Part shown: positions 1 to 56,491 of the stretch, in pieces | Numbering within the stretch: position 1 is the first letter of the stretch | Layout: each line of letters opens with the position of its first letter | From: Gammaproteobacteria bacterium | GTDB lineage: Bacteria > Pseudomonadota > Gammaproteobacteria > Pseudomonadales > CAMLJR01 | Assembly: GCA_029265075.1 (NCBI GenBank) | Contig: JAJUJZ010000002.1 | Coordinates: 207-64,206 of the forward strand | Direction: 5' to 3' | DNA: 64,000 nt | Translations under genes and position numbers: made by a program | The notes under the pieces: generated by a model | The model's input: only the letters and a program-made list of their open reading frames with translations | What the model was told of the DNA's origin: nothing | Database searches by the model: none

Positions 1-840
1 CCAGCCATCTGGCTCGAACAGCAGCTCGTCGGCGTTGCTCAGTCGCACCCGGCCCCTGAGGAAGTTGTCGAAGCCGACAAATTCCGCGACGAAGGCGCTG
101 TTCGGCGACTGGAAGATCTCTTCCGGCGTCCCGAGCTGGGCGATTCCGCCCTCCTTCATTACCGCCACCCGATCCGCCAGGGCCAATGCCTCGCTCTGAT
201 CGTGCGTGACGAAAATGGAGGTGTGGCCAACGCTGTCGTGCACGCGGCGCAGATCGCTGCGCAGGCGGACCCGCAGCTGCGCATCGAGGTTCGACAGCGG
301 CTCATCGAACAGCAGCAGGTCCGGTTTGGCCACGACTGCGCGCGCCAGCGCCACGCGCTGCTGCTGGCCACCGGACAGATCCGAAGGGCTGCGCTGCCCC
401 AGGTTTTCCAGCCCGACCAGCTCCAGCGCAGCGCGCACTTCGCGCTCCGCGTCGGCCCGTCCCAGCGATTTCTGGCGCTGCTTCAGCGGATAGGCGACGT
501 TGTCGAACACCGACATGTGCGGCCACAGCGCGTAGCTCTGGAACACCATGCCGATCGACCGCTTGTTGGGCGGCACTGCAATCCGCTCGGCGGGTGCGGC
601 TACCACCTGTCCGCCGATGGTGATGCTGCCGGCATCGGGCGTCTCCAGCCCCGCCACGCAGCGCAGCGTGGTGGTCTTGCCGCAGCCGCTCGGCCCGAGC
701 AGTACGAAAAATTCCCCTTCCCTGATTTCCAGATCCAGTCCATTGATCGCGCCCTTGCCCTTGATCGACTTCTGTTCGTCGATATCGCGCGGGGCGAAAT
801 ATTTGCGCAACCGACTGATCGTTACACCGCTCACTGTCAT
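1..840 (-). CDS. ABC transporter ATP-binding protein (FbpC/PotA/MalK-like); 3' end lies outside the window
   Basis: Missing from the ORF track because it runs off the left edge. My reverse-strand translation from the ATG at 838-840 reads MTVSGVTISRLRKYF... It has Walker A GPSGCGKTT, ABC signature LSGGQQQRVALARA, Walker B LLLFDEPLSNLD and H-loop FVTHDQ. It starts 39 nt after the permease stop on the same strand. Confidence 0.9.
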   Translation of the reverse strand, partial: MTVSGVTISRLRKYFAPRDIDEQKSIKGKGAINGLDLEIREGEFFVLLGPSGCGKTTTLRCVAGLETPDAGSITIGGQVVAAPAERIAVPPNKRSIGMVFQSYALWPHMSVFDNVAYPLKQRQKSLGRADAEREVRAALELVGLENLGQRSPSDLSGGQQQRVALARAVVAKPDLLLFDEPLSNLDAQLRVRLRSDLRRVHDSVGHTSIFVTHDQSEALALADRVAVMKEGGIAQLGTPEEIFQSPNSAFVAEFVGFDNFLRGRVRLSNADELLFEPDGW

Positions 841-879
841 ATCTCCGTCAAATTCTGTATGTCGCTAACTGGTGTGGCA

Positions 880-2652
880 TCAGACGCCACTGGCGAGCTC
901 GTCCAGCGATTGCTTGCGGTGGAGGTAGAGCCGGCCGAGCAGTTTCCACAAGCCCAGCGCGGTGAGCAGCACGGCCGCTTCAGCCGCCAGCAGCACCACC
1001 AGCAGCGCGGACGCCGCCGAGAAATCAGAGGTCGAGTTGAGGTTGTAGACAACCGTCGCGACCAGGTTGAGGTCCGGCGCCTTCAGCAGCAACGGGATCT
1101 CTAGGTTGCCGCTGACGATCACCGCCGCCATGAACCAGCCCGCAAAAAAGCTCGGCGCCAGCAGCCACAGCGTCACGTCGATAAAGGTGCGGCGTGGCGA
1201 CGCACCACACACCTGCGCCGCCTCCTGCAACTCCGGTGCGATCTGCACCACGGCGGCGTTGGCGACCTGAGTCGCAAATGGGATCACCGCGATGATCAAT
1301 GCCAGCAGCAACAGGATCGACGAGCCATACAGCTGTTGCAGGCCGGGTACGCTGATCACGGCCGACGATATCGCCAGTGCCGTCACCGCGCCCGGCATGG
1401 CCAGCGGGATGTAGGTGACGAACCGCACCACCGAAAACTCCCGCGCGCTTAGCCCGCGTGAAATCTGCGCGATCAGGATCGCCAGGAACATCGCCAGCAG
1501 ACCGACCAGGATCGACATGGTGAAAGTCAGCGCAACGGCGCTGGTCACGCGCGGCAGCTGGAAGATGTTGACGTAGTGGCGCAGGGAGAAGTTTTCGTAG
1601 ACACTGGGGATCGGCTGGAATGAGGTGAACAGCACCGAACCGATCGGGAACAGCACTGCCAGCACCAGGAACAGCGCAATCGCGGTGCCGACCAGGGGAC
1701 GGCTGCGCTGCAGGCCGATGCGGCGCCGCACGCCCGCCTTGCCGACCACGGTGACGTAGTTCTTTTTGCCGAGCAGCCTGGCCTGGCCCCAGCACAGCAC
1801 GCCCACTACCGCGACCAGAGCGATCGACAGCACGCTCGCCTTGGCGTAATCGGGGCCGCTCATGCCGGTCACAAAGAGCAGGATCCGGGTGGCGATGACG
1901 TTGATGCCCTGCGGCCAGCCGAGGATCAGCACCAGGTCGAACGCCTGCAGGCCGCCGACCAGTCCCAGCAACACCGCGCCGCTGATGGCGGGCGTCAGAG
2001 ACGGCAGGCTGATGCTGAAGAAGGTCTTGAACTGGCTGGCGCCCGATACCAGCGACGCATCGTCGTGCGCCGGACTGAGCGAGCGGAACGGCCCGATCAG
2101 AAACAGATAGATGATCGCCACTTTTTTGAAGATGGAGGCCACGATCAGTCCCGACCAGGTTTCAATATCGACCAGATAGTCGATGCCGAACAGCAGCGTA
2201 CCGAGATTGTTCAGCCAGCCGGTGTACTTGTTGCCCAGGAACGAATAACCGAGCGCATAGAACAGCGGCGGCGTGGCGAAGGCGATCAGCAGGCCGGGCA
2301 GAATCCAGCGCCGCAGCGGCGCGTCAGTCCGCTCGGAGAGAAACGCGAGCGCGGCAGCAATCGCGGTGGCGAACAGCGTCGTCACCACCGAGATGATCAT
2401 CGAGTTGTAGACGGCATCGCCGATGCCCGCCCCGGTAAAGGTGGTGCGCCACGCTTCAGTGGTCCACTCGCTCTCGAAGCCGGGCGGCAGCGTGCGGAAG
2501 GAGCCGACGACCAGCATCACCGCCGGCCAGACCATCATCACCAGCAGCAGCCCGTAAAGGAACAGCCGCGGGGTCAGTCGTGGCGACCAGCTCGGCAGGC
2601 CGAGGCCCGGGGACCACTTCTCTGTCTGGGTCAGGGATTGCTCAATCGTCAT
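880..2652 (-). CDS. Fused two-module ABC transporter permease (FbpB/ThiP-like)
   Basis: 590-aa ORF that is very hydrophobic throughout. Two EAA-type loops are visible (DDASLVSGASQFKTFFSISLPSL and LQEAAQVCGASPRRTFIDVTLWLLAP), indicating a duplicated BPD-type permease. It sits directly upstream of the ATPase gene. Confidence 0.85.
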   Translation of the reverse strand: MTIEQSLTQTEKWSPGLGLPSWSPRLTPRLFLYGLLLVMMVWPAVMLVVGSFRTLPPGFESEWTTEAWRTTFTGAGIGDAVYNSMIISVVTTLFATAIAAALAFLSERTDAPLRRWILPGLLIAFATPPLFYALGYSFLGNKYTGWLNNLGTLLFGIDYLVDIETWSGLIVASIFKKVAIIYLFLIGPFRSLSPAHDDASLVSGASQFKTFFSISLPSLTPAISGAVLLGLVGGLQAFDLVLILGWPQGINVIATRILLFVTGMSGPDYAKASVLSIALVAVVGVLCWGQARLLGKKNYVTVVGKAGVRRRIGLQRSRPLVGTAIALFLVLAVLFPIGSVLFTSFQPIPSVYENFSLRHYVNIFQLPRVTSAVALTFTMSILVGLLAMFLAILIAQISRGLSAREFSVVRFVTYIPLAMPGAVTALAISSAVISVPGLQQLYGSSILLLLALIIAVIPFATQVANAAVVQIAPELQEAAQVCGASPRRTFIDVTLWLLAPSFFAGWFMAAVIVSGNLEIPLLLKAPDLNLVATVVYNLNSTSDFSAASALLVVLLAAEAAVLLTALGLWKLLGRLYLHRKQSLDELASGV

Positions 2653-2733
2653 CGCTTTTCTACCAAAATGCCGAAACGGGCGCGTGATGGCGCCCGGTCG
2701 AAAACGTCTGTGGGGGCATCCCTGCCCGGATAA

Positions 2734-3906
2734 TTACTGCTTCTTGGGTGCCAGTACCGGCGGTTCGTGGTCCAGATCGAGCAGCGGCAGCAGCAGCTCG
2801 GCGGTGTATTCCGCCTCCTGCGCCTGCGGCCAGCCAGACAGGATGAAGTTGTCGATACCCACTTCGCTCTGCAGCCACTTGAGGCGGTCGGCCACCTGCT
2901 GTGCGCTGCCGACAATGTATGTGCCTGCACCTTCGCCCGGCAGGTCGAGTAGCGCGCCCCACCCCGTCATGCCCGCGTACATGTTGGGCGCGATCTCAAG
3001 ATCCTCGAGGCGCGGCAGACGGCCGGCGCGCAGTGCATCGATGCGCGCCTGCACTTTCGGGTTGCTGCTGCTGATGCCGTTGAGGCCTTCCTTGTGCACG
3101 CCGCGAGCGATCAGCGCCTCGTGTGCAGAGCGCGCGATCGCTTCGGCGCCGGTGCTCTCCAGCAGCTGCTGGAAGTGACGAATCGCCTCCTCCTCGGTTT
3201 CGCGCACCACCACGCTGGCGAGCGCGCCGAACTCGAGGGTCCGTCCCTGCAGCGCAGCGGCCGCCTTGGCGTCCTGGATCTGCTTGGCAACGTCTGCCGG
3301 ATTGCGCAGAAACGCGAGATAGACGTCCACCACCTGCGCAGCGTGGCCAATACCGGCCGGCGAAGCGCCGGCGCCCCACAGCGGAATGCAGGGCGACTGC
3401 ACAGGGCCGAGCGGCAGGTTGCTGGAGAGCAGCACGTTCGAGTCGCGGCCAGAGATGTTGAAGTACTTGCCGCGGTGCGTGACGTTCTCGCCCTTGTAGA
3501 GGCGCTTGAACAGCTTCCAGTACTCGGCGCTCATCTCGTAGCGCTCGTCGTGCTCGACATCGACGCCGTAACGCGCCAGCGTCTTGTCGGTGCCGTTGAC
3601 GAGATTGAACAGCAGGCGGCCGCCCGAATAGTCGTCGAAGGTCAGCGCCTGCTGCGCAAGCAGCGATGGCGGCGTAACGCCCGGATAGATCGGGATCAGG
3701 AAACGCATCCGTTCGGTGACCGAGATCAGCGACGTCACTGTAATGAAGACATCGTGCGCGTAGGTCCCGAACAGCGCGCCGTAGAAGCCGCCGCGGTCGA
3801 CGGTCTGCGCGGTGCGGCGCAGACGAGCGTGATCCACTGGAAAGCGGCCTTCGGGAACCCACGGACGACGACCGTCTACCGGGCTGATGTACCAGAGCAC
3901 TTTCAT
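2734..3906 (-). CDS. LLM-class flavin-dependent monooxygenase, SsuD (alkanesulfonate monooxygenase) family
   Basis: The 390-aa product is collinear by eye with E. coli SsuD as I remember it: RFPVDH, LLFNLVNGTD, HDERYEMSAEY, VDVYLAF, VVVRETEEEA, LEIAPNMYAG, IDNFILSGWPQAQEAEYTAELLLPLLDL. Confidence 0.8.
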   Translation of the reverse strand: MKVLWYISPVDGRRPWVPEGRFPVDHARLRRTAQTVDRGGFYGALFGTYAHDVFITVTSLISVTERMRFLIPIYPGVTPPSLLAQQALTFDDYSGGRLLFNLVNGTDKTLARYGVDVEHDERYEMSAEYWKLFKRLYKGENVTHRGKYFNISGRDSNVLLSSNLPLGPVQSPCIPLWGAGASPAGIGHAAQVVDVYLAFLRNPADVAKQIQDAKAAAALQGRTLEFGALASVVVRETEEEAIRHFQQLLESTGAEAIARSAHEALIARGVHKEGLNGISSSNPKVQARIDALRAGRLPRLEDLEIAPNMYAGMTGWGALLDLPGEGAGTYIVGSAQQVADRLKWLQSEVGIDNFILSGWPQAQEAEYTAELLLPLLDLDHEPPVLAPKKQ

Positions 3907-3932
3907 GATCGTTTCCTGCCTCGAATCAAGGA

Positions 3933-4607
3933 CTATTTGAAGTGGCTAGTCGCGCCGCTCTTGCGGATGGCGCGCTGGATGTCGTCGTAGGCGTCTTCCG
4001 GCAGCGGACGTGCCCCGCCCAGCTGGTCGGCAAGCAGTTCGATCTGCGCGGCGGCCTCGAAGAATTTGAGGCGGGTTGCCGCTTCGGAAATGGTGTCGCC
4101 GAAAACGAACGCGCCGTGGTTGCCGTGCAGAACGCCGGGGATCTCCGGGTAGTCGCGCAGCGTTTCCAGCAGGGGTGAACCATCGTCACGCGGGCTGTAA
4201 CGGGTGACCGGAAGGACGTCGCGCTGACCGAACCGGGGCTGCGAAATATGGATATTGCGCAGCGGGCGGTAGGCGGTGGAGAACGCCATCAGGTACGGGG
4301 TGTGGGCGTGGAATGCAGCCTTCACGTCGGGGCGTGAGGTAAAAATGCCGATATACAGCGGCGCGTACTCGCGTACCGCGGGATAGGGAGCGCCGTGGAC
4401 CACTTCGCCCTGGAAATTGAACACCACCACGCCACGGTCGGGATGGCGCGCCGCGCTGCCGATCACGAAGAGGTTGTCGTCGCCGGGGAAGCGCCATGCA
4501 CCGTTGGCTGCACCGGGGACCGTGCGCGGCGTGTCAGCCAGCTGGTTCTCGACGATCTGGGCGAAGCGGAAAAGGTCAACGCCTTCGAATTCGTTCTGTT
4601 TGCTCAT
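3933..4607 (-). CDS. Class II aldolase/adducin-domain protein
   Basis: 224 aa with metal-binding His motifs AFHAHTPY and VLHGNHGAFVFG, typical of the class II aldolase fold. Same strand, 26 nt upstream of the monooxygenase gene. Confidence 0.75.
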   Translation of the reverse strand: MSKQNEFEGVDLFRFAQIVENQLADTPRTVPGAANGAWRFPGDDNLFVIGSAARHPDRGVVVFNFQGEVVHGAPYPAVREYAPLYIGIFTSRPDVKAAFHAHTPYLMAFSTAYRPLRNIHISQPRFGQRDVLPVTRYSPRDDGSPLLETLRDYPEIPGVLHGNHGAFVFGDTISEAATRLKFFEAAAQIELLADQLGGARPLPEDAYDDIQRAIRKSGATSHFK

Positions 4608-4652
4608 GACTCAGTTCTCACAGTGAATGAAATGGATGGGTGAATGCTCGGT

Positions 4653-5690
4653 TCAGGCGAGTCCTGCCCTCGCCTCTTCCAGCAGGCTGGTATCGATCCA
4701 GCTGCTGATGTCGAAGTCTTCTTCGATAAAGCCAAGCTGCAGGAGGTAATCCTTCTGGTTTTCCAGCGCGGCGATGGAGGTCTCGGTGAAGTCGACGGCG
4801 ATGCTGTCGACCAGCCCGGCGCCGAAGGCCGATTCGACGATCTGCTCCGCCACGGCCTGCTCGCGCGCGATGAAACGCACAGCTTCCTGGAAGTTGTCGC
4901 GCGCCCACTGTTCCGCCTGCAGGATGCGTTTGAGGATCCGCACCACCACGTCGCGATGCTGGTCGATGAAGGCTTCGTCGACGGTCAGCGTCAGCGGCGT
5001 ACTGTTGTTGGCGCGCTCGCGTTCGTCCGGCAGCGAGGCCAGGTCGAAAACGCGGTTGAGACCGAACAGGAATTCGAGCTGCGGCGCGGGAGAGCCGATA
5101 GTGCGCGAGGTGATCACGTCCACTTCGCCGCGAATCAGCGGCAGCAGGCCGTCGGTGTACCAGGCGCGCTCGATGCGGCCGGTGTTGCTGCGGTTCTTGC
5201 GCGGTACCGCGGTGGTCAGGTCGGGCTCCACCAGCGTGACGTCGTCGAATGTCAGGCCGGCGCTGCGCAGCGCTGCTTCATAGGTGCGGCGCGAGGTCGA
5301 GTACTGGAAGTCGATCGGCGCGCTGGTGTTGCGCTGCAGCAGCAGTCGTTTGCCGCGCAGATCGGACGGCTGGGTGATCCCGGATTCCGGCAGGCTCAGC
5401 ACTGCCTGCGGGCCGCGCACGAAGCTGAGGCCGATAACCTTGGTTTTGGCGCCGCGCGAGCGGGTCCAGATCGCCGGGATGTTGCCGCCGTGGCGGATCA
5501 GGTTGCCGAGCTGGTGCGAGAAGTGGCTTTGCAGCCGCTCCGGATTGGCGTCTGCCTGCAGCAGCTGAAAGTCGACGTCGCCGCCAGCCGGAAACTCTTC
5601 CGCGAACAGGCCGAGGTGCACGCCGATGCCGAGTCCCGTCGGGATCGGGCAGCGGGTGTAGTACACCGGAAGGGCCGAAGCTGTGGTCAT
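4653..5690 (-). CDS. Signal-less NMT1/SsuA-fold protein; DszB-type desulfinase candidate
   Basis: 345 aa with no signal peptide or lipobox (MTTASALPVYYTRCPIPTGLG...). Segments resemble remembered DszB motifs: YTRCPIP, SHF-(10 residues)-IRHGGNIP, QWARDNFQEAV. Only 66 nt separate its start from the stop of the upstream receptor gene. Confidence 0.6.
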   Translation of the reverse strand: MTTASALPVYYTRCPIPTGLGIGVHLGLFAEEFPAGGDVDFQLLQADANPERLQSHFSHQLGNLIRHGGNIPAIWTRSRGAKTKVIGLSFVRGPQAVLSLPESGITQPSDLRGKRLLLQRNTSAPIDFQYSTSRRTYEAALRSAGLTFDDVTLVEPDLTTAVPRKNRSNTGRIERAWYTDGLLPLIRGEVDVITSRTIGSPAPQLEFLFGLNRVFDLASLPDERERANNSTPLTLTVDEAFIDQHRDVVVRILKRILQAEQWARDNFQEAVRFIAREQAVAEQIVESAFGAGLVDSIAVDFTETSIAALENQKDYLLQLGFIEEDFDISSWIDTSLLEEARAGLA

Positions 5691-5756
5691 GTCAGAAATC
5701 CTCGAAACGCACTGACTGAAAAAGCGGCCGGCGGCCGCAGCCGCCGACCCAACGGG

Positions 5757-8213
5757 TCAAAAGTTGTAGCTGGCGTTCACGTAGTAGAACGCGCCGTTGT
5801 AGCCAGCCGGTGAGGCTGCGGAGTAGTAGGTCTGACCCAGCGTGCGCTGCTCGGGAATCTGCTTGTCCGGATGGGTATCGAACAGGTTGCGCGCGCCCAG
5901 GCCGATCCGCAGAGCGTCGGTGAAGCTGTAACCCACTTCCAGATCGGTCACCCACTGGGCGCCGTAGGTCTGGTCGAAGCGGCCATTGCTCGGGTGAGCG
6001 ATGGAGAACTCGCCATAACGCACGACATTGAGTGCGGCATCCCAGCGCGCCTGCTGCCAGCTGGCGCCGACCACCAGTTTGTCTTCGGGTGCGTAGTCTT
6101 CGATGATGGCGCGCGTCTGACGGCCCACCAGCACCACGCCGGAGCCTTGCAGCTGCGAGGGGTTGGCTGCCACACCTTCGATCTCGGTCTTGGCGCGGCT
6201 GTATGCAACTGTCAGGTCGAGGTTGCCAGCGTCCAGATCCCATTCGTACTTGCCGACGATATCGACGCCGCGGGTCTTGGTATCCACGCCATTGATGAAG
6301 AACTGCGCGAACTGGATGTCCGGGAAGCCGGCGCTGGTCAGGATCGAGTTGACCAGCGGGCCGCCGAGTGCGTCTGTCAGAACGATGCGGTCGTCGATAT
6401 CGATCTGGTAGGCATCGATGGTCAGCGAAGCGTTGGCTGTCGGGGTGATAACCAGACCTACCGAGTAGTCCAGCGACTCTTCCGGGGTCAGCGCCTTGGC
6501 ACCGAGCGCGCGCGCTTCGGGGCTGTCGACCGGCAGACCGCGGGTCGAGGTGAAGTTGATGGTGCCGACCTGGGTGCTGAGACCGGTATAGGCATATCCG
6601 CTCTGCGCCAGCGCAGGAGCGCGGAAGCCCGAGCTGACCGACGCGCGCAGCGCCACGGCGTCGCTGAACTCATAACGCGCCGATACCTTGCCGTTGGTGG
6701 TCGAGCCGGCGTCGTTGTAGTCGTCGTAACGGGCGGTCAGACCGATGTCGAGGCGCTCGAAGGGCGAGAATTCGGCGCTGGCATAAGCGCTGACTACTTC
6801 GCGCGACAGATCGACCGCATCCTGCGGGTAGAGGCCCGTGTTGCCACGCGAACCGATCAGCGGCACCTGGCCTGCGTTGGGGCCGTCGGGAATCAGCACG
6901 CCGCCATTGGCCCAGGTTTCATAGGTGCCGGCTTTGGTCTTGTAGTGATCTTTCCGGTAGGCAACGCCAGCGGTAAGCGCCAGCGGGCTGTCCAGTGCCG
7001 GCAGCTCGATCTCGGTCACGTAGTCCAGGTTGGCGCCGACCGAGCTGTTCTTGCGCGAGAAAAGACGGTCGAACGAAGTCGGGCTATCTGCGCCGAAGGT
7101 CGGGTTGACCGACGGGCCAACGCCCTGCCCCAGCTTGTTCCAGCCGTACGAGAGCGAGAAGTCGAGCTTGCCGAACTCATCGTCGATGAAGCGGACGCCG
7201 CCCAGTGCGCTGAAATCGCGGTTCTTGTAGGTGGCCACCGGCTGGTAGCCATCCGGAAACAGCTCGCGGACGTTACCTTTGTCGTTCGGCGGAATGAAAT
7301 TCTGGCGCGACTCGTTCTCGCTGTCCGTATAGGAGAGCGAACCGTAGGTGGTCACGGCATCGGTGATGCCGATTTCCGCATTCGCCAGCAGGTTGTAGGT
7401 GTCGCGGTTCGGCGGCTGGGCCCACTGGACGCGGTCTTTGCGAGCCGTAGCTTCCCGGGCATCGCCATCGAAATACCACTGGCGCGGGTCTGCCGGACCG
7501 GAGAGCGGCGGACGCTCGCTGTAACGGTCGAAAGCCAGCGTCAGGAAGCCGTCGCCCGGCAGCTCGAAGCCCTTCCAGCCGCTGATGCTGGCGCCGAATT
7601 TGTCGCTGTCGGCCTTGAACTGGCCGTACTGGGCGGAGAGGTTGCCGCCCTCGGCTTCACCCTTCAGTACCACGTTGATAACGCCTGCAACAGCGTCCGA
7701 GCCGTACTGTGCCGAAGCGCCGTCACGCAGCACTTCGATGTGATCGATGGCGCTGAGCGGGATGGTGTTCAGGTCAACGGGCTGGGCATTGTTGGCGCTC
7801 AGGCCGGCGATGGTGTGGCGGCGTTTGCCGTTGACCAGTACCAGTACCTGGTCGGCCGACAGGCCGCGCAGGGTGGCTGCCTTCACACCGTTGTTCACAA
7901 AACCGCCAGTGGGCGAGTTGAACGAGGGAGCGAGTTTCTGCAGTGCCTCATTGAGACGGGTCACGCCGCCCTTCTCGATCAGGTCTGATTGCACGACATC
8001 GACCGGCGCGGAGCTGGTCAGCGGGGTAACGTCGCTGCGGCTGGTACCGGTGACGACGATCTCTTCGATCGAACCAGCCCGCGCGTAGTCGGCCAGTGTT
8101 GCAGGCTGGATATCCGTAGCCGCCGCAAAACCATTGGTTGAATTGAAAGCAATGAAGGCGCTCAGCGCCGTCAACTGAAATTTTCTGCTACCGATATATG
8201 AAAAAGCGGACAT
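5757..8213 (-). CDS. TonB-dependent outer-membrane receptor
   Basis: 818 aa. Signal peptide MSAFSYIGSRKFQLTALSAFIAFNSTNGFAAA, TonB-box-like IEEIVVTG, plug motif LRGLSADQVLVLVNGKR, and a long beta-barrel region ending in the aromatic terminus ...NASYNF. Confidence 0.92.
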   Translation of the reverse strand: MSAFSYIGSRKFQLTALSAFIAFNSTNGFAAATDIQPATLADYARAGSIEEIVVTGTSRSDVTPLTSSAPVDVVQSDLIEKGGVTRLNEALQKLAPSFNSPTGGFVNNGVKAATLRGLSADQVLVLVNGKRRHTIAGLSANNAQPVDLNTIPLSAIDHIEVLRDGASAQYGSDAVAGVINVVLKGEAEGGNLSAQYGQFKADSDKFGASISGWKGFELPGDGFLTLAFDRYSERPPLSGPADPRQWYFDGDAREATARKDRVQWAQPPNRDTYNLLANAEIGITDAVTTYGSLSYTDSENESRQNFIPPNDKGNVRELFPDGYQPVATYKNRDFSALGGVRFIDDEFGKLDFSLSYGWNKLGQGVGPSVNPTFGADSPTSFDRLFSRKNSSVGANLDYVTEIELPALDSPLALTAGVAYRKDHYKTKAGTYETWANGGVLIPDGPNAGQVPLIGSRGNTGLYPQDAVDLSREVVSAYASAEFSPFERLDIGLTARYDDYNDAGSTTNGKVSARYEFSDAVALRASVSSGFRAPALAQSGYAYTGLSTQVGTINFTSTRGLPVDSPEARALGAKALTPEESLDYSVGLVITPTANASLTIDAYQIDIDDRIVLTDALGGPLVNSILTSAGFPDIQFAQFFINGVDTKTRGVDIVGKYEWDLDAGNLDLTVAYSRAKTEIEGVAANPSQLQGSGVVLVGRQTRAIIEDYAPEDKLVVGASWQQARWDAALNVVRYGEFSIAHPSNGRFDQTYGAQWVTDLEVGYSFTDALRIGLGARNLFDTHPDKQIPEQRTLGQTYYSAASPAGYNGAFYYVNASYNF

Positions 8214-8348
8214 TTCGACTTACTCGCCTACAGCAAATTTGATGGCGGCGATTAAGCCAGTCGGGATATGGCTGAGTGAAATATTCTTTTTAGGTATGAA
8301 TATCGAAAGATTAGCTAACGAAGCCGTCTATCAAACCAGTGCAGCGCA

Positions 8349-8362
8349 TGATAATGAATTAT
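8349..8362. promoter_or_regulatory. Weak Fur-box-like AT-rich dyad upstream of the TonB-dependent receptor gene
   Basis: TGATAATGAATTAT (bottom strand ATAATTCATTATCA) lies about 140 nt upstream of the receptor ATG in a 246-bp AT-rich gap. The first half matches the Fur consensus GATAATGAT. The second half is offset by one base, so the match is partial. Confidence 0.25.
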
Positions 8363-8413
8363 GGTTCGGCGGGGTCGGATTGGAGCGACGTACCGGAAGG
8401 CCACTCTGAAAGG

Positions 8414-8449
8414 ATAAAAATTGCGGGAGCGGCCCGGTGCCCCGGGCCG
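8414..8449 (-). terminator. Possible intrinsic terminator after the SIMPL gene
   Basis: On the minus strand, the hairpin CGGCCCGG-GGCA-CCGGGCCG (8430-8449) is followed after 9 nt by TTTTT. The U-tract is not adjacent to the stem, so this is weak. Confidence 0.35.
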
Positions 8450-8459
8450 TACATTGCAG

Positions 8460-38945: not shown

Positions 38946-40862
38946 TTGCTGCTCTGCTGCTGCCTGCTGTTGCTGCCGGTCACAGCATCCGCGCAGGAAG
39001 GGACCGATCAGGCCGACTGGAGTCAGACCGTCACGCTCAACATGCGCGACGCTGATATCCGGGCCGTCATTCAGTGGATCGCGGAGCAGACCGGGCGCCA
39101 GATCGTGATTGATCCGCGCGTCCAGGGCCGCGTTTCGGTGATCTCCGACCGCCCCATGACGGTGGCCCAGGCCTACCGCGTATTCCTCTCCATGCTGGAC
39201 GTCTACGGCTACGCCACGTCCGACCTCGACGGCATTCTGCGAATTTTCCCGGCACCGCTGGCGCGCACGGCGCCGCGCCGGCTGCTGACAGAGCTCGACG
39301 ATGGCGATGCAGCCGGGGGGCAGGTAGTACATGTACTGCGCACCCGCCATCTGCAGCCGCAGGCGCTGGCCGAACTGATGCGTCCGCTGATCGGTCCGGC
39401 CGGTTATGTCGCGGCGGTGCCGGGCAGCGACAGCGTGGTTGTGGCCGATACCCGTACCAACGTGACCCAGCTGGTGACGCTGGCACGGCGGCTCGACAGC
39501 CGCGGCGCGCTGGAGATGGAACTGGTCAGACTTGAACATGCAGCTGCGCCTGAGGTAGCGAAGCTGTTGCTGTCACTGCTGCAGAAGCGGGCCGAAAATA
39601 GCGGTAGCGAAGGCGCGGTGCCGCTCGCGGTGGCTGCCGATGCGCGCTCCAATGCAGTGCTGCTGAGTGGTGATGCGGCCAGCCGGCAGCGCGCCCGCGA
39701 ACTGGTAGGGCAGCTTGACCAGCCTGTGAGCGGGGCCGGCACCACCCGGGTGGTCCACCTCCGGTACCTGGCCGCCGAAGAGCTGGTGCCGGTGCTGCGC
39801 AGCATGAGTCAGACGGTCCAGGAAGAAGCCGGTGACCAGCTGGTCACTGCCACGCCCGTCTCGATCGAGGCCAGCATCAGCACCAACGCGCTGGTGATGA
39901 CCGGTGCCCCGCCGCTGCTTGATCGGATGGCGGCGGTGATCGAGCGCCTCGACGTGCGTCGCGCCCAGGTGCTGGTGGAGGCAGTCATCGTCGAACTCAG
40001 CACCGATCTCACAAAGCGACTCGGCGTTGAATGGCGCTCCGACCTGAGCGGCGATGGCCTGCAGGGCGCCATCAGCTTTGGTCTCGCCGCCCCGCTGGGT
40101 GATCTGCTGGGCTCCGGCCTGTCGCTTGGTTACTACCGGAACGGCAGCCTGCGCGCGCTGCTCAACGCGCTCGCCACGACTCAGGAAGCAAACATCCTCT
40201 CGACCCCGTCGGTGATGACCCTCGACAACCAGCCAGCCGAAATCATGGTGGGCAGCAACATTCCGCTGGTCACTGGCCAGGTCACCAGTGAAGCAGCGGA
40301 TGTCAGCAATCCGTTCACCACGTTCGAGCGCGAAGATATCGGCGTGATGCTGAAAATCACGCCGCAGATCAACCATCGCGATGCGGTAACGCTGGCGATC
40401 GAGCAGAAAGTCGAAACGGTCTCCGAGACTCCGGTGGGCGGCGGCCTCAGCCAGGCGCGCGACATCATCACCGACAAGCGCAGCGTCGCAACCAAGGTGC
40501 TGGTGGAAAGCGGCACGGTTCTCGTGCTGGGCGGGCTCATCTCCGACGAGGACCGGAAGGCTGTCAGCAAGGTTCCCGTACTGGGCGATCTGCCGCTGGT
40601 TGGCCGTCTGTTCCGCAGTACTACCAGCAGCCGGATCAAACGCAACCTGATGGTGTTCATCCATCCGGTCATCGTTGATTCCGGCGAAATTGCCGAGCGC
40701 CTGACCCGTGACGCCTACAATGCAGTGCGCGACCAGCAGCTCGAACACAGAGAGCGGGCCACGGCACCTGCGGTGGAACCAGCCGCACCGGCGATATTGC
40801 CGGAGTTCGAGGAGTTCCGGCCGCGCCAGGGTCCCGCTACCGCCCTTCCAGCAGCGCCGTGA
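38946..40862 (+). CDS. gspD: Type II secretion system secretin GspD, copy 1 (no adjacent gspC)
   Basis: 638 aa with N0-domain signature VTLNMRDADIRAVIQWIAEQTGRQIVIDPRVQGRVSVIS, N1-N3 repeats and secretin domain ...VPVLGDLPLVGRLFRSTTSSRIKRNLMVFIHPVIV. The only in-frame start is TTG, giving a signal peptide with no basic n-region (MLLCCCLLLLPVTASA). An ATG at 38908 lies in another frame. Confidence 0.85.
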   Translation: MLLCCCLLLLPVTASAQEGTDQADWSQTVTLNMRDADIRAVIQWIAEQTGRQIVIDPRVQGRVSVISDRPMTVAQAYRVFLSMLDVYGYATSDLDGILRIFPAPLARTAPRRLLTELDDGDAAGGQVVHVLRTRHLQPQALAELMRPLIGPAGYVAAVPGSDSVVVADTRTNVTQLVTLARRLDSRGALEMELVRLEHAAAPEVAKLLLSLLQKRAENSGSEGAVPLAVAADARSNAVLLSGDAASRQRARELVGQLDQPVSGAGTTRVVHLRYLAAEELVPVLRSMSQTVQEEAGDQLVTATPVSIEASISTNALVMTGAPPLLDRMAAVIERLDVRRAQVLVEAVIVELSTDLTKRLGVEWRSDLSGDGLQGAISFGLAAPLGDLLGSGLSLGYYRNGSLRALLNALATTQEANILSTPSVMTLDNQPAEIMVGSNIPLVTGQVTSEAADVSNPFTTFEREDIGVMLKITPQINHRDAVTLAIEQKVETVSETPVGGGLSQARDIITDKRSVATKVLVESGTVLVLGGLISDEDRKAVSKVPVLGDLPLVGRLFRSTTSSRIKRNLMVFIHPVIVDSGEIAERLTRDAYNAVRDQQLEHRERATAPAVEPAAPAILPEFEEFRPRQGPATALPAAP

Positions 40863-51666: not shown

Positions 51667-53610
51667 ATGACCCGATGGAGCCTCATGAACCGCGTCGCGC
51701 CGCCGTCGCGTCACCTGGCGCTTGCCACCTGGCTGGCAGTCGCTGGCGTCTGCACCGCCCTGCCACTGGCGGCACAGCCGGCCAGCGAGGAAACCATCAC
51801 CATGAACCTGCGCGACGCCGATATTCGCAGCGTCATTCAGTGGGTGGCTGATCTCACTGGCCGCAACATGGTGGTACACCGTGACGTGACTGGTCGCGTC
51901 ACCGTGCTTTCAGCCCGCCCCGTCACGGCCGCGGAAGCCTATCGCCTGTTCCTGTCGATGCTGCAGGTGAACGGCTATGCCGCCATCGATACCGGCGATG
52001 CGGTGAAAATCGTGCCCGCCGAGCAAGCCAGTCGCAGCGGCGCGCCGTTTAGCGACAGCGGTGCTGGCGATACCGTGGTTCAGCTCTTTGAAACACGCAA
52101 TGTACCGGCGCGGGAACTGGCGCAGATGCTGCGGCCGCTGGTGAGCGAAAACGGCGTTGTGTCGGCCGATGCCGGCAGCAACCGTCTGGTGGTGGCCGAT
52201 CGTGCCCGCACTGTCGCGGAGCTCGGGCGCCTCATCGAGCAGCTCGACCGTGCCGGTACTGCCGAGGTGGAGATGATCCGTCTGCGGCACGCCAATGCCG
52301 TCAATCTGGTCAAGAGTCTGCAGGGCTTGTTTCCGGAGCAGTCACGTGGCGGCGAAGGTGACCAGGGCCGCCCGCTGACGCTTTCTGCCGATGAGCGATC
52401 GAACAGCCTGCTGGTGGGCGGTGATCCGGTCCGCCGCGCCCAGATTCGCCGCCTTGTGACAGAGATGGATACCGAGATCGTCGGCGGCGGCGCCGCACAA
52501 GTGATCTATCTCCGGTATGCCAAAGCGACCGAGCTGGCCCCTATTCTGAAGGGGCTGGCAACAACCATGCTGGAGGATCAGCGCGAGACGCAGACACCGG
52601 TCAGTATCGAAGCCAGCGAGAGCGCCAACGCGCTGGTGGTCAACGCGCCGCCTGCCCTGATGAGCACCGTACGCGAAGTTGCCGGACAGCTCGACGTCCG
52701 GCGCGCGCAGGTGCTGGTCGAAGCACTGATTGTGGAAGTACGCGGTGTGGTAGACAAAGATCTCGGCGTGCAGTGGATGACGGCCAGTGCGGACGATCTC
52801 AACGACAGCAGCGGCTTCGTCGGCGTCAACACGCGCGGCCGGCTCGGCATGGGCTCGGCACAGGTCGATGATGCCGGCAACATCATCAGCATCACGCCCG
52901 GTGCAGGCATCACGCTGGGCTACTTCGAGAACGGCAACCTGCAGGCAGCGATCCGGGCACTGAGTGAAACGACACAGGCTAACATCCTCTCGACGCCAAC
53001 CATCGTCGCGATTGACAACCAGCCGGCATCGCTGCTGGTCGGTCAGAACGTGCCGCTGGTGACCGGTGAAGTGACCGGCGCGGCTGCCGATGTCGAAAAC
53101 CCCTTCACCACCTACGAACGCAAGGATATCGGAACGTCGCTGGAGATCCTGCCGCGCATCAATCAGGGTGACTCGATCACGCTTGAGATCCGCCAGACCG
53201 TTGAGGATATCGACCCGTCCACCAGCGCCCGCGACATCGTTACCAACAAGCGCGAGATCGTAACGACTGCACTGGTGCGCGATGGCAGCGTGCTCGTGCT
53301 GGGCGGGCTGATCAGTGATGCCGATACGACTATCGAAGAGAAAGTGCCAGTGCTGGGCGACCTGCCGCTGATCGGCCGCCTGTTCAGCAGCCGCGGGACC
53401 ACACGTTCCAAAACCAACCTGATGGTGTTCATCCGGCCGGTGATTCTGAACGACGAAGAGCGCATCAGCGAAGCCAGTCAGCGCCGCTACGAATACATGC
53501 GCAATGAACAGCGCCGCGCCGCCGAGCAGCCGCCCACCACGACCGAAAAGCGGCAGCCGCAGCCGGAACTGGAGCCTTTCGAGCGTTTCGCAGCACCCGA
53601 TCGGCCGTAG
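51667..53610 (+). CDS. gspD: Type II secretion system secretin GspD, copy 2 (canonical, downstream of gspC)
   Basis: 647 aa. Good signal peptide (...LATWLAVAGVCTALPLAAQP), N0 signature ITMNLRDADIRSVIQWVADLTGRNMVVHRDVTGRVTVLS, and secretin domain VPVLGDLPLIGRLFSSRGTTRSKTNLMVFIRPVIL. Confidence 0.93.
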   Translation: MTRWSLMNRVAPPSRHLALATWLAVAGVCTALPLAAQPASEETITMNLRDADIRSVIQWVADLTGRNMVVHRDVTGRVTVLSARPVTAAEAYRLFLSMLQVNGYAAIDTGDAVKIVPAEQASRSGAPFSDSGAGDTVVQLFETRNVPARELAQMLRPLVSENGVVSADAGSNRLVVADRARTVAELGRLIEQLDRAGTAEVEMIRLRHANAVNLVKSLQGLFPEQSRGGEGDQGRPLTLSADERSNSLLVGGDPVRRAQIRRLVTEMDTEIVGGGAAQVIYLRYAKATELAPILKGLATTMLEDQRETQTPVSIEASESANALVVNAPPALMSTVREVAGQLDVRRAQVLVEALIVEVRGVVDKDLGVQWMTASADDLNDSSGFVGVNTRGRLGMGSAQVDDAGNIISITPGAGITLGYFENGNLQAAIRALSETTQANILSTPTIVAIDNQPASLLVGQNVPLVTGEVTGAAADVENPFTTYERKDIGTSLEILPRINQGDSITLEIRQTVEDIDPSTSARDIVTNKREIVTTALVRDGSVLVLGGLISDADTTIEEKVPVLGDLPLIGRLFSSRGTTRSKTNLMVFIRPVILNDEERISEASQRRYEYMRNEQRRAAEQPPTTTEKRQPQPELEPFERFAAPDRP

Positions 53611-54790: not shown

Positions 54791-56491
54791 TCAGGTGCGA
54801 ACGCCAAGCGCGCCGAGACTCTCTTCAGCGACGTTGAGAATGCGCTCGTCGGGGGTACGCTGAGCAGCCAGTTCGCTGAGGTAGTATTCGAGGCTGATCA
54901 GGGCGTCGGCAAGCGTCTCGACCAGCTGCTGACGCTGCTGGTCGGTGTAATCGCGGCTGCGACTGCAGCTTTCGACAAAGCCGACGCAGCCCCGCAGCAA
55001 CCCGGCCGGGCGCTCCTGCCCGAGCATCTGCATGGCACCGCGCACCGTATCGAGAGTGGTACCGACATTGCCAATATGGATCGGGTCGAAGCCCGATTCG
55101 AGGTAGGTGGTGACGGCCCGTTTGGCGAGCGTCAGCCCCGCCTGTGACTCTTCGATGACAATACGCATCGCTTCTGCCAGCTGGCTCTCTGCAATCACCA
55201 GCCGGCGCATGTTTTCCGAGACCTGGCCGAGGTTTTCCGCATCGGGTGACTGGCGGTAGAGACCCAGCAGCGAACTTTCTATAAACAGCAGTGCATCGGC
55301 CACTGCCAGAAACTGCTCCGTCGAAAAGTCGCTGCTCTGGGCAGTCCACTGTTCGATGCGACCGAGCTGGTTGCGCAGAATATCGCTGGCAGCGTTCAGG
55401 TTCAGCACCTGAAGGGTATCGGCGACCCGTTCCAGAATGTCGCGCAGACTGGCAAGCTCTTCGGCCGGCAGGCTCTGGTGGAGCGATCCGACCTCCAGAA
55501 TCTCCTTGGCCTGACGCAGCTCTTCCTTCACAGCCTTCACGATGGAGTCGATCGCCGCGGTGCCCGGACCCCGCATCAGCTCGCGCTGCCGCGCCAGCTC
55601 GCGATCATCAACTGGCCCTGGCGAGAGCCCGAAGGCAGCGGCCACCTGCTCAGCCAGGCCCGGTCTCGGTGTGGACAGGGCCAGCAGGAACTGCAGCTCC
55701 ATGCGCAATGTGGTGTCGTTCCCTGACAGTGCCTGTTCACCCTGGCGGACGTAACGTGCCATTAGTCGTTCGATAGCACCGAGCGTGCGCCGGCGATTCA
55801 GGTTAAGCGTCAGGCCACCATTGGCCAGCCGCTCAGTCACGGCCGCGGCCAGCCACCAGAAGCCGTTACTGGCCTGCGGCTCGGTGAGCGCCGCAAACCG
55901 CTGACAGGCGCGCGCGATGAGCCGCAGGTTGAGTGCTTCGTTCTGCTGCTTGAGGATGGCCAGCAAGCCGACCTGGAACATCTGCTGCAACCGCGCCAGC
56001 TCCTGCGGCCGGCTGGCGACAGCGGGTGCCGGTAACGTGTCGGTGAGCGGCTGCAGCGGCGGCTCGCCAGAGAAGTGGTATTCGGGAATAAGTGGCTGAC
56101 GCCGCGCCACCCGCAGCTCGTTGACGTACGGGATAACCAGCATCGGGTGGCCAGTCTGACGGGTCGCAACCAGTTCGATGTAGCGCGGCAACGCAAAGAA
56201 GGCGTGGCTCAGTGCCCCTGCCAGGGCTTCGGCCGAGGCGCCACCGGCGCTGGCAATATCGGTTGCGGCAGCGCTGATTTCATCGGCCAGCAGGGCGGCG
56301 CCCGGAAACTGGATCATCCGCAATGTGCCGCCGATCTGTGCCATGTCAGTACGGCAGTTCTCCAACGCTTCGGTATTGGCTCCGTCGAGCAGAAACACCT
56401 CGAACTCACCGGCTGCGCGCTGGATGGTCGCCTCCAGCTCCTCCCGAATCAGCGCCAGCGAATTGAGATTCACGTTGGGGTGGTGGGTCAC
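54791..56491 (-). CDS. fimL: FimL-like Hpt-domain scaffold protein (ChpA N-terminus-like)
   Basis: 566 aa. The N-terminus LNSLALIREELEATIQRAAGEFEVFL...LENCRTDMAQIGGTLRMIQFPGAALLADEI follows the pattern I recall for Pseudomonas FimL/ChpA Hpt-like repeats. A second similar module is AKRAVTTYLE...TLDTVRGAMQMLGQERPAGLL. The neighbourhood (dnaQ, rnhA, gloB, mltD) matches P. aeruginosa. No kinase domain. Confidence 0.55.
   Translation of the reverse strand: MTHHPNVNLNSLALIREELEATIQRAAGEFEVFLLDGANTEALENCRTDMAQIGGTLRMIQFPGAALLADEISAAATDIASAGGASAEALAGALSHAFFALPRYIELVATRQTGHPMLVIPYVNELRVARRQPLIPEYHFSGEPPLQPLTDTLPAPAVASRPQELARLQQMFQVGLLAILKQQNEALNLRLIARACQRFAALTEPQASNGFWWLAAAVTERLANGGLTLNLNRRRTLGAIERLMARYVRQGEQALSGNDTTLRMELQFLLALSTPRPGLAEQVAAAFGLSPGPVDDRELARQRELMRGPGTAAIDSIVKAVKEELRQAKEILEVGSLHQSLPAEELASLRDILERVADTLQVLNLNAASDILRNQLGRIEQWTAQSSDFSTEQFLAVADALLFIESSLLGLYRQSPDAENLGQVSENMRRLVIAESQLAEAMRIVIEESQAGLTLAKRAVTTYLESGFDPIHIGNVGTTLDTVRGAMQMLGQERPAGLLRGCVGFVESCSRSRDYTDQQRQQLVETLADALISLEYYLSELAAQRTPDERILNVAEESLGALGVRT

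Follow-up and report, generated by a model that had tools for sequence, protein, structure and literature searches.

A putative sulfur-starvation module combining a TonB-dependent receptor, a DszB-type protein and an SsuD-like monooxygenase in a Pseudomonas-like gammaproteobacterium

We describe a six-gene operon at the left end of a 64,000-nucleotide stretch (hereafter the window) of contig JAJUJZ010000002.1, which belongs to a Gammaproteobacteria bacterium of the Pseudomonadales (assembly GCA_029265075.1). In our view, the most consistent interpretation is that the operon is a sulfur-starvation-induced module of a Pseudomonas-like bacterium, which would take up a scarce organosulfur compound and free its sulfur as sulfite; we put the probability of this reading at about 0.6. 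A new organosulfur-scavenging route had been proposed in the initial annotation, which was made from the sequence letters alone. Such a role, in the service of sulfur starvation, is supported by the depletion of cysteine and methionine in the module proteins, by the sulfur-type context of related loci and by the lack of a recognizable Fur box. The six open reading frames (ORFs) all lie on the minus strand at the coordinates first reported, with gaps of 66, 45, 26, 81 and 39 nt (reported as 26-81 nt), and Pfam matches bear out the superfamilies that had been assigned (TonB-dependent receptor, NMT1, Aldolase_II, Bac_luciferase, fused permease and ATPase). In the order of transcription the genes are as follows.

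5757..8213, minus strand: TonB-dependent receptor without an N-terminal signalling domain, 818 amino acids (aa); Pfam Plug and TonB_dep_Rec_b-barrel
4653..5690, minus strand: DszB-type protein, putative sulfinate desulfinase, cytoplasmic, 345 aa; Pfam NMT1
3933..4607, minus strand: class II aldolase-fold metalloenzyme with three His ligands, 224 aa; Pfam Aldolase_II
2734..3906, minus strand: FMNH2 (reduced flavin mononucleotide)-dependent luciferase-like monooxygenase of a distinct SsuD-like clade, 390 aa; Pfam Bac_luciferase
880..2652, minus strand: fused double permease of an ATP-binding cassette (ABC) importer, 590 aa; two BPD_transp_1 stretches
1..840, minus strand: ATPase of the ABC importer, N-terminal 280 aa, the gene crossing the left window edge; ABC_tran

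The proteins of the module are strikingly poor in sulfur. Counted after the initiator Met, Cys and Met together amount to 0/817 residues in the receptor, 1/344 in the DszB-like protein (a single Cys), 1/223 in the aldolase-fold protein and 5/389 in the monooxygenase; the other genes of the window have a median of 2.4%, and the module proteins lie significantly lower (Mann-Whitney p = 0.001). The same depletion is found in the module proteins of Zoogloea, Acinetobacter, Aquipseudomonas and a metagenome variant. Three Zoogloea proteins (aldolase-fold, monooxygenase and RutE-like) are entirely free of Cys and Met, and the module receptor there has 1/813 compared with 10/689 for an unrelated neighbouring receptor. 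Across 80 loci with DszB-like relatives, the median content is 0.57% for the DszB-like proteins, 0.24% for the receptors, 0.77% for the aldolase-fold proteins and 1.04% for the monooxygenases, against a background of 2.8%. Purging of Cys and Met is said, after Mazel and Marliere in 1989 and Baudouin-Cornu et al. in 2001, to mark proteins made under sulfur limitation. The neighbourhoods of the 80 loci are rich in SsuABC-type importers, receiver-less sigma-54 activators, TonB/ExbBD genes, LsfA-like peroxiredoxins and acyl-CoA-dehydrogenase-fold genes, and one related locus carries sulfatase genes.

A phmmer search of the DszB-like protein against solved structures returned the desulfinase DszB (2de2) as the sole significant relative, with an E-value of 3.6e-9. 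In the alignment the window motif YYTRCPIP lies opposite TYSNC27PVP of DszB, and SHF...IRHGGNIP opposite VH60F...TR70FGG73EIP, which places window residues Cys14, His56, Arg66 and Gly69 at the positions of Cys27, His60, Arg70 and Gly73. These four residues form the active site of DszB, in which the sulfinate is anchored by His60 and Arg70 (PMC12168087). Alignments of 16 and of 80 homologues, with identities as low as 37%, show no variation at Cys14, His56, Arg66, Gly68 and Gly69, and the sole Cys or Met residue of the window protein is Cys14, a Cys at the catalytic position of an otherwise sulfur-purged protein. The AlphaFold2 (AF2) model has a predicted local distance difference test score (pLDDT) of 93.6. 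Its top Foldseek matches are the two DszB entries 2de3 and 2de2, with a template-modelling (TM) score of 0.78 and a probability of 1.0; lower in the list are SsuA (TM 0.68), ThiY, THI5 and 4,5-dihydroxyphthalate decarboxylase (9jp7; TM 0.53). The resemblance to DszB that was first noticed from the letters is therefore borne out by the invariant Cys/His/Arg/Gly set and by the top structural match. There is no signal peptide, the first strand starting at residue 7, and the protein is therefore expected in the cytoplasm. Taken together, the alignment and the model are consistent with a putative desulfinase that would release sulfite hydrolytically from a sulfinate. The family is large: the genome collection holds relatives in 586 species or more, with two to four copies at many loci, and the named matches inspected all bear the annotation of a substrate-binding protein of an ABC transporter or ABC-type transport system.

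The monooxygenase matches PF00296 with 150.6 bits and aligns with SsuD (1m41) over residues 3-379 with an E-value of 1.5e-58. It is 36.8% identical to SsuD from E. coli, and its closest characterized relatives are SsuD and MsuD (about 37% identity); DszA, SfnG and DmoA are weak relatives, with SfnG at 109 bits compared with a cut-off of 383. The scores of the window protein fall well below the SsuD equivalog cut-offs (239.9 versus 518.2 bits and 249 versus 510 bits for TIGR03565 / NF001939). The sulfonate-binding motif of MsuD consists of Trp195, Arg225 and Arg296, supported by His10 and His227, and the mutants W195A, R225A and R296A each show no sulfite release (PMC8234197). MsuD Arg225 and Arg296 are Arg226 and Arg297 in SsuD. 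At the positions of MsuD Trp195, Arg225, Arg296, His10 and His227 the window protein has Phe, Leu229, Gly, Pro and Ser231, respectively, which in SsuD numbering corresponds to the substitutions W196F, R226L, H228S and R297G. The region described as the sulfonate-binding loop carries a seven-residue insertion with a conserved Trp and a conserved Asp. The substitutions and the insertion recur in every orthologue within the module, and the motif is lost in 120/120 of the best homologues of the monooxygenase, among which Paenibacillus, Gordonia, Rhodococcus, Bradyrhizobium and Acinetobacter are represented. Elsewhere, members of this clade adjoin amino-acid, peptide or Liv-type importers, DszC-like and HpaB-like oxygenases, and sulfatases.

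These observations bear directly on whether the operon is a classical sulfonate-scavenging system, in which the SsuD-like monooxygenase would free sulfite directly, with the DszB-like protein merely in an accessory role or as a binder of sulfonates in the cytoplasm. SsuD and MsuD are indeed the nearest characterized relatives of the monooxygenase, the Joint Genome Institute (JGI) labels members of its clade 'alkanesulfonate monooxygenase', and the family model of SsuA gives a weak match to the DszB-like protein. Against this stand the score of 240 bits beside a 518-bit cut-off and the replacement, in the window protein and its 120 closest homologues, of three residues each essential for sulfite release by MsuD (PMC8234197), whereas the Trp, Arg226 and Arg297 (SsuD numbering) are retained by the monooxygenases that adjoin other DszB-like paralogues. 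The invariant catalytic Cys as the only sulfur residue of the DszB-like protein and the absence of a signal peptide likewise count against it. Neither an SsuE/MsuE-type reductase nor an SsuABC importer is found beside the monooxygenase in the window, and the two closest relatives also have no reductase. We consider a classical sulfonate system unlikely, and we conclude from sequence that the monooxygenase is not a true SsuD, but belongs to sulfur scavenging and would bind a non-sulfonate group. With the sulfonate clamp lost, it probably attacks a non-sulfonate sulfur centre such as a thioether or a sulfone. Of the SsuD-type assignment in the initial annotation, the collinearity with SsuD stands, but a sulfonate specificity is not supported. 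The accompanying view that sulfonate and sulfinate chemistries lie side by side is probably wrong; the better analogy is the pair DszA and DszB, in which a monooxygenase produces a sulfinate for the desulfinase to hydrolyse.

The aldolase-fold protein matches PF00596 with 73.2 bits (cut-off 22.2), and its AF2 model (pLDDT 93.5) superposes best on AraD and FucA with TM scores of 0.71-0.77. The three His metal ligands (FucA His92, His94 and His155) are kept, within the motifs FHAHT and GNHG, in the window protein and its orthologues. The Pfam match begins at profile position 48 and the N-terminal phosphate-binding part appears poorly conserved: FucA Ser71 and Ser72 are not kept, while Asn29 and Thr43 are possibly kept after a shift of one residue (the FucA reference sequence in these alignments is approximate). 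Structural neighbours in the Protein Data Bank include non-haem iron dioxygenases of the same fold, namely pyruvic oxime dioxygenase, NovR and TqaM. The orthogroup is tiny, with two proteins reaching an E-value of 1e-30 in an exhaustive search of 1.84 billion representative proteins and five found in a word-indexed search. Aldolase II-fold paralogues beside other DszB-like paralogues (loci L009, L025, L026 and others) keep the first two His residues and have Gly for the third (His155); they form a different subfamily, which is likewise sulfur-depleted.

A suggestion about the role of this protein comes from the variants of the module that are without it. Those from Sphingobium, Caulobacter and the metagenome contig L085 each have a cupin of about 300 aa directly after the monooxygenase, and this cupin is missing from all of the aldolase-containing variants and from the other loci, so that the two are mutually exclusive in five versus three genomes. 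The cupin matches mercaptosuccinate dioxygenase (8vni) with an E-value of 3.9e-25 and keeps the H-x-H...H site. Thiol dioxygenases convert a thiol to a sulfinate (PMC8050391, PMC5373536), and the product of mercaptosuccinate dioxygenase (Msdo), sulfinosuccinate, decays spontaneously to succinate and sulfite (PMC5373536). The exclusivity suggests that the aldolase-fold protein performs a step equivalent to that of the thiol-dioxygenase homologue, that is, one that forms a sulfinate, and we infer that it is a candidate Fe(II) oxygenase. A sulfinate-forming enzyme beside a sulfinate-hydrolysing enzyme is chemically sensible. The class II aldolase of the initial annotation is upheld as a fold; it is probably not a sugar-phosphate aldolase, since it is exchangeable with a thiol-dioxygenase homologue. 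The cupins are found at L008 13634-14497 and 14543-15418, L019 7447-8331 and L085 12448-13380, Sphingobium having two tandem copies. About 110 additional residues at their C-termini match nothing in Pfam. Characterized msdo genes cluster with a gene for a rhodanese-domain protein (PMC5373536), and the extension might therefore be a fused rhodanese-like domain.

The folds of the DszB-like and aldolase-fold proteins are also compatible with an operon that has no relation to sulfur and serves the carbon catabolism of an aromatic or heterocyclic acid, in which both would be non-oxidative decarboxylases and the monooxygenase would hydroxylate a ring or a side chain. The DszB/NMT1 fold is shared by 4,5-dihydroxyphthalate decarboxylase (9jp7), the aldolase II fold includes the 3,4-dihydroxyphthalate, HMPDC and OtnC decarboxylases, and the major facilitator superfamily (MFS) transporter of the sister operons resembles organic-anion symporters. 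We nevertheless regard this as quite improbable. Every protein of the module is extremely depleted in Cys and Met in five taxa; the gene context includes sulfatases, SsuABC-type importers and the thiol-dioxygenase homologue; the structural match to DszB (TM 0.78) is considerably better than that to the decarboxylase (0.53); and the His and Arg that anchor the sulfinate are invariant.

The receptor has a Plug domain at residues 66-178 and a barrel at residues 462-777 (Pfam), a signal peptide, the TonB box EEIVVTG and the C-terminal residues YNF; a signalling extension is absent. Its scores lie far short of the cut-off of every curated substrate-specific subfamily in NCBIfam. Orthologues with 43-73% identity head the module in six other genomes, which makes seven of the eight variants when the window is included. 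The top NCBIfam matches of the permease and ATPase are PhnU2, PhnT2 and PotA rather than SsuC or SsuB, in agreement with the iron/thiamine/polyamine-like class first proposed, and the importer appears to belong to the Phn/Pot/Fbp class, with the permease far under the cut-off of PhnU2, its top match. Full-length relatives of the ATPase have 394 aa. Directly after the ATPase gene in three relatives there is a gene for an SBP_bac_6 binding protein, and the corresponding gene of the window organism therefore probably lies just left of the window edge. In other variants an MFS or SsuABC-type importer takes the place of the permease and ATPase, and the inner-membrane transporter appears to have been swapped at least three times.

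A TonB-dependent receptor beside an Fbp-type importer could indicate uptake of iron or a siderophore, with the enzymes acting as tailoring functions that release the iron. Several siderophore and haem receptor families are indeed among the weak matches of the receptor, and the ATPase is similar to ferric ABC ATPases, among many others. All of these receptor scores are far under their cut-offs, however, and the receptor contains neither Met nor Cys. The importer is freely swapped while the enzymes stay. No Fur box is apparent: the best match upstream of the operon has 11/19 positions, compared with chance matches of 13-14/19 elsewhere in the window. An iron-uptake role is, in our opinion, very improbable indeed. 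As candidates, iron uptake, a classical Ssu system and an operon for decarboxylation of the phthalate type were each rejected on the evidence of motifs and scores, composition, context and the Fur box.

A survey of gene neighbourhoods shows that the module recurs in alpha-, beta- and gammaproteobacteria. The receptor, the DszB-like protein and the member of the distinctive SsuD-like clade form its constant core, and this trio, whose conservation had been raised as a question by the initial annotation, is found together in eight genomes. A metagenome scan with the monooxygenase clade returned four loci. The variants are arranged as follows.

Pseudomonas sp. LRF_L74 and an Aquipseudomonas campi-like contig (71-83% identity): receptor, DszB-like, aldolase-fold, monooxygenase, fused permease, ATPase, SBP_bac_6, two ABC-exporter-type genes, LysR regulator
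Metagenome contig L084: binding protein immediately after the ATPase
Zoogloea sp. LCSB751: divergent sigma-54 activator; receptor, DszB-like, MFS, aldolase-fold, monooxygenase, RutE-like nitroreductase
Acinetobacter amyesii: receptor, DszB-like, aldolase-fold, monooxygenase, MFS, then ExbB-ExbD; inside DNA resembling insertion sequences (IS) and integrative and conjugative elements (ICE)
Sphingobium and Caulobacter metagenome-assembled genomes: receptor, DszB-like, MFS, monooxygenase
Metagenome contig L085: receptor, DszB-like, two monooxygenases, SsuABC-type importer, nitroreductase

Regulatory genes accompany several of these variants: a LysR gene closes the cluster in the closest relatives, and a sigma-54 activator flanks the Zoogloea module. 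At Zoogloea L002 7427-7442 we note a near-consensus sigma-54 promoter, TGGCACGGGGTCTGCA (TGGCAC-N5-CTGCA), about 117 nt 5' of the module receptor gene and adjoining the divergent gene for the activator, which has no receiver domain. There is no counterpart of this promoter in the window, which indicates that regulation of the module differs between lineages. In Acinetobacter amyesii (L092 4670-5416, 14703-15922 and 17267-20611) transposase genes and ICE- or phage-like genes (YagK_YfjJ_C, DUF932, YqaJ) flank the module and exbB-exbD, which suggests that the module moves horizontally there. In the closest relatives two ABC-exporter-fold genes follow the binding-protein gene (L001 10548-13990; L091 15454-18959). 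Their products have MsbA-like and CydDC-like top matches, below cut-off, and are not sulfur-depleted; they may export a thiol or a product, or act as importers in the manner of YbtPQ. Similar genes occur in 22/80 of the DszB-like loci.

In the route that we propose, the TonB-dependent receptor would carry a scarce organosulfur compound across the outer membrane, and the Phn/Pot/Fbp-class importer would move it into the cytoplasm with the help of a binding protein probably encoded left of the window. The FMNH2 for the monooxygenase would come from a reductase encoded elsewhere, or in some variants possibly from the adjacent nitroreductase-family protein. The monooxygenase would cleave or activate the C-S bond at a non-sulfonate sulfur (thioether or sulfone), for which DmoA, SfnG and DszA are precedents. 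The three-His aldolase-fold enzyme would form, or help to form, a sulfinate, and the DszB-type enzyme would hydrolyse this to sulfite and the desulfurized carbon skeleton. Overall the route would run from thioether or thiol to sulfinate to sulfite, in a step order that is itself conjectural. An aromatic or heteroaromatic substrate and sulfinate seem favoured, because DszB, the sole characterized enzyme of this type, acts on an aryl sulfinate.

Several points weigh against this interpretation. The DszB-like protein is only 18-20% identical to DszB, and orthology with DszB, TdsB or BdsB is not indicated; judged by sequence, the protein is a distant branch of the DszB fold family and not an orthologue. 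The same fold also houses a decarboxylase and many binding proteins. In the aldolase-fold protein a Glu is retained near the position of the catalytic Glu73 of FucA, so that ordinary aldolase, epimerase or decarboxylase chemistry is possible, and the exchange with the cupin in five versus three genomes may mean that the substrates differ, not that the two proteins perform an equivalent step. It is also possible that the monooxygenase acts after the other enzymes and not before them. A flavin reductase gene is absent nearby, both in the window and in the closest relatives, and no regulator site was recognized upstream of the window operon. Regulation by sulfur is deduced solely from composition and gene context.

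A more specific version of the scavenging interpretation, which we put forward tentatively and consider possible though doubtful, is that the aldolase-fold protein is a new iron thiol dioxygenase or other sulfinate-forming oxygenase that has displaced the cupin. The module would then operate a three-step route from thioether to thiol (monooxygenase) to sulfinate (three-His oxygenase) to sulfite (DszB-type desulfinase) on a specific natural aromatic or heteroaromatic thiol or thioether, which a dedicated TonB-dependent receptor would capture at trace levels, and hundreds of species would possess mis-annotated desulfinases of the DszB type. If true, these desulfinases would point to a natural ancestry of the 4S pathway.

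Searches of the accessible full-text literature found no description of this gene set, in keeping with the initial statement that the combination was unfamiliar. The module nevertheless appears to be built from known families and to follow a known sulfur-scavenging logic, and it is not categorically new. It resembles, in its chemistry as predicted, the 4S pathway of Rhodococcus (DszC, DszA and DszB), in that a flavin-dependent luciferase-like monooxygenase adjoins a DszB-fold enzyme with the Cys/His/Arg/Gly site, that the sulfur is predicted to leave as sulfite via a sulfinate, and that both systems are repressed by sulfur or spare it; other DszB-like loci carry monooxygenases of DszA size and DszC-like genes of the acyl-CoA-dehydrogenase fold. 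It differs in that the window monooxygenase is of the SsuD branch and not of the DszA/NtaA branch, there is no DszC in the window, a TonB-dependent receptor, an importer and a three-His metalloenzyme are added, the DszB-like protein is about 20% identical to DszB, and the substrate is presumably a natural compound rather than dibenzothiophene.

Two of the other DszB-like loci, L094 (1482-12329) and L093 (2846-10170), look like complete dszABC analogues, each with a monooxygenase of DszA size (449 aa), DszC-like genes of the acyl-CoA-dehydrogenase fold, and DszB-like genes in one or two copies. In L094 a TonB-dependent receptor precedes this set, which is accompanied by a peptide-type importer and an Amidohydro_2 gene.

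With the ssuEADCB and msuEDC systems the module shares a two-component FMNH2 enzyme, a probable place in the sulfate-starvation response and sulfur-poor proteins; unlike them, it has no sulfonate clamp, adjacent reductase or SsuABC in the window, and it adds a desulfinase and a metalloenzyme. The dimethylsulfone and dimethylsulfide enzymes SfnG and DmoA provide a precedent within the superfamily for C-S cleavage at uncharged sulfur, with a sulfinate or a thiol as the product, but their clade and gene context differ and the window protein scores far below the family cut-offs. SftP, of the ats/sft cluster of Pseudomonas putida, is a TonB-dependent receptor for organosulfur scavenging under sulfate limitation; unlike the module, it serves sulfate esters and a dioxygenase-type sulfatase. 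The Msdo route of Variovorax and Advenella likewise passes from thiol to sulfinate to sulfite, and an Msdo homologue is present in the sister variants. That route, however, is a catabolic one in which neither a receptor nor a monooxygenase takes part, the window has an aldolase II-fold protein in place of the cupin, and the Msdo sulfinate decays spontaneously (PMC5373536), whereas the module would have a dedicated desulfinase.

Much of the sulfur in soil is carbon-bonded, yet bacteria are known to scavenge it by only a few routes (ssu, tau, msu/sfn and ats). If our interpretation is correct, the module adds a receptor-coupled route via a sulfinate and provides a natural role for the DszB enzyme type, which is so far known only from fuel desulfurization. 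The annotation of the DszB-like family as transporter binding proteins, in at least 586 species, may then need correcting, and the module would define an SsuD-like clade with a non-sulfonate substrate. Concrete hypotheses that are cheap to check follow from the compositional signature and from the replacement of the aldolase-fold protein by a thiol dioxygenase homologue.

Two further features of the operon are of interest.

8214..8459, minus strand: AT-rich intergenic spacer of 245 nt, 5' of the receptor gene, in which the GC content dips to 0.56-0.58
5726..5749, minus strand: terminator-like hairpin between the receptor gene and the DszB-like gene, with 10 pairs, nine of them G-C, followed by a T-run

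The operon promoter is presumably located in the spacer, which also contains the terminator of the upstream SIMPL gene. No convincing sigma-54 promoter was found upstream of the operon, a sigma-70 scan gave only background-level matches, alignment with the upstream region of LRF_L74 showed no clear footprint, and an Rfam scan of the whole window revealed no RNA element. The hairpin lies inside the operon directly 3' of the receptor stop codon, so that the receptor may be transcribed or made in excess of the downstream gene products; it may be a partial terminator or a stabilizer and may in this way adjust the amount of receptor relative to the enzymes. Pseudomonas sp. LRF_L74 has a weaker hairpin at the equivalent spot. 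Two long antisense ORFs on the plus strand, at 4644-5813 (389 aa) and 5871-7988 (705 aa), overlap the DszB-like and receptor genes; these were treated as chance ORFs of high-GC DNA and not as genes.

The genes upstream of the spacer are unrelated housekeeping genes (SIMPL, glyoxalase, cioAB, ligA, zipA, smc and ccm). Throughout the remaining 56 kb, which holds housekeeping genes such as cioAB, ligA, zipA, smc, ccm and lexA together with type II secretion genes, there is no flavin reductase and no binding protein, and nothing else in the window is related to sulfur or to flavin reduction; the absence of an FMN reductase and an exported binding protein, first remarked on for the visible part, thus extends to all 64 kb. 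Two separate GspD-like secretin genes of type II secretion are found within 13 kb of each other (38946-40862 and 51667-53610), and with them are GspE, GspF and GspL genes and an AAA_22/peptidoglycan-binding protein. Finally, a 566-aa ORF at 54791-56491 on the minus strand has a normal GC content at third codon positions and no Pfam match at an E-value of 1e-5.

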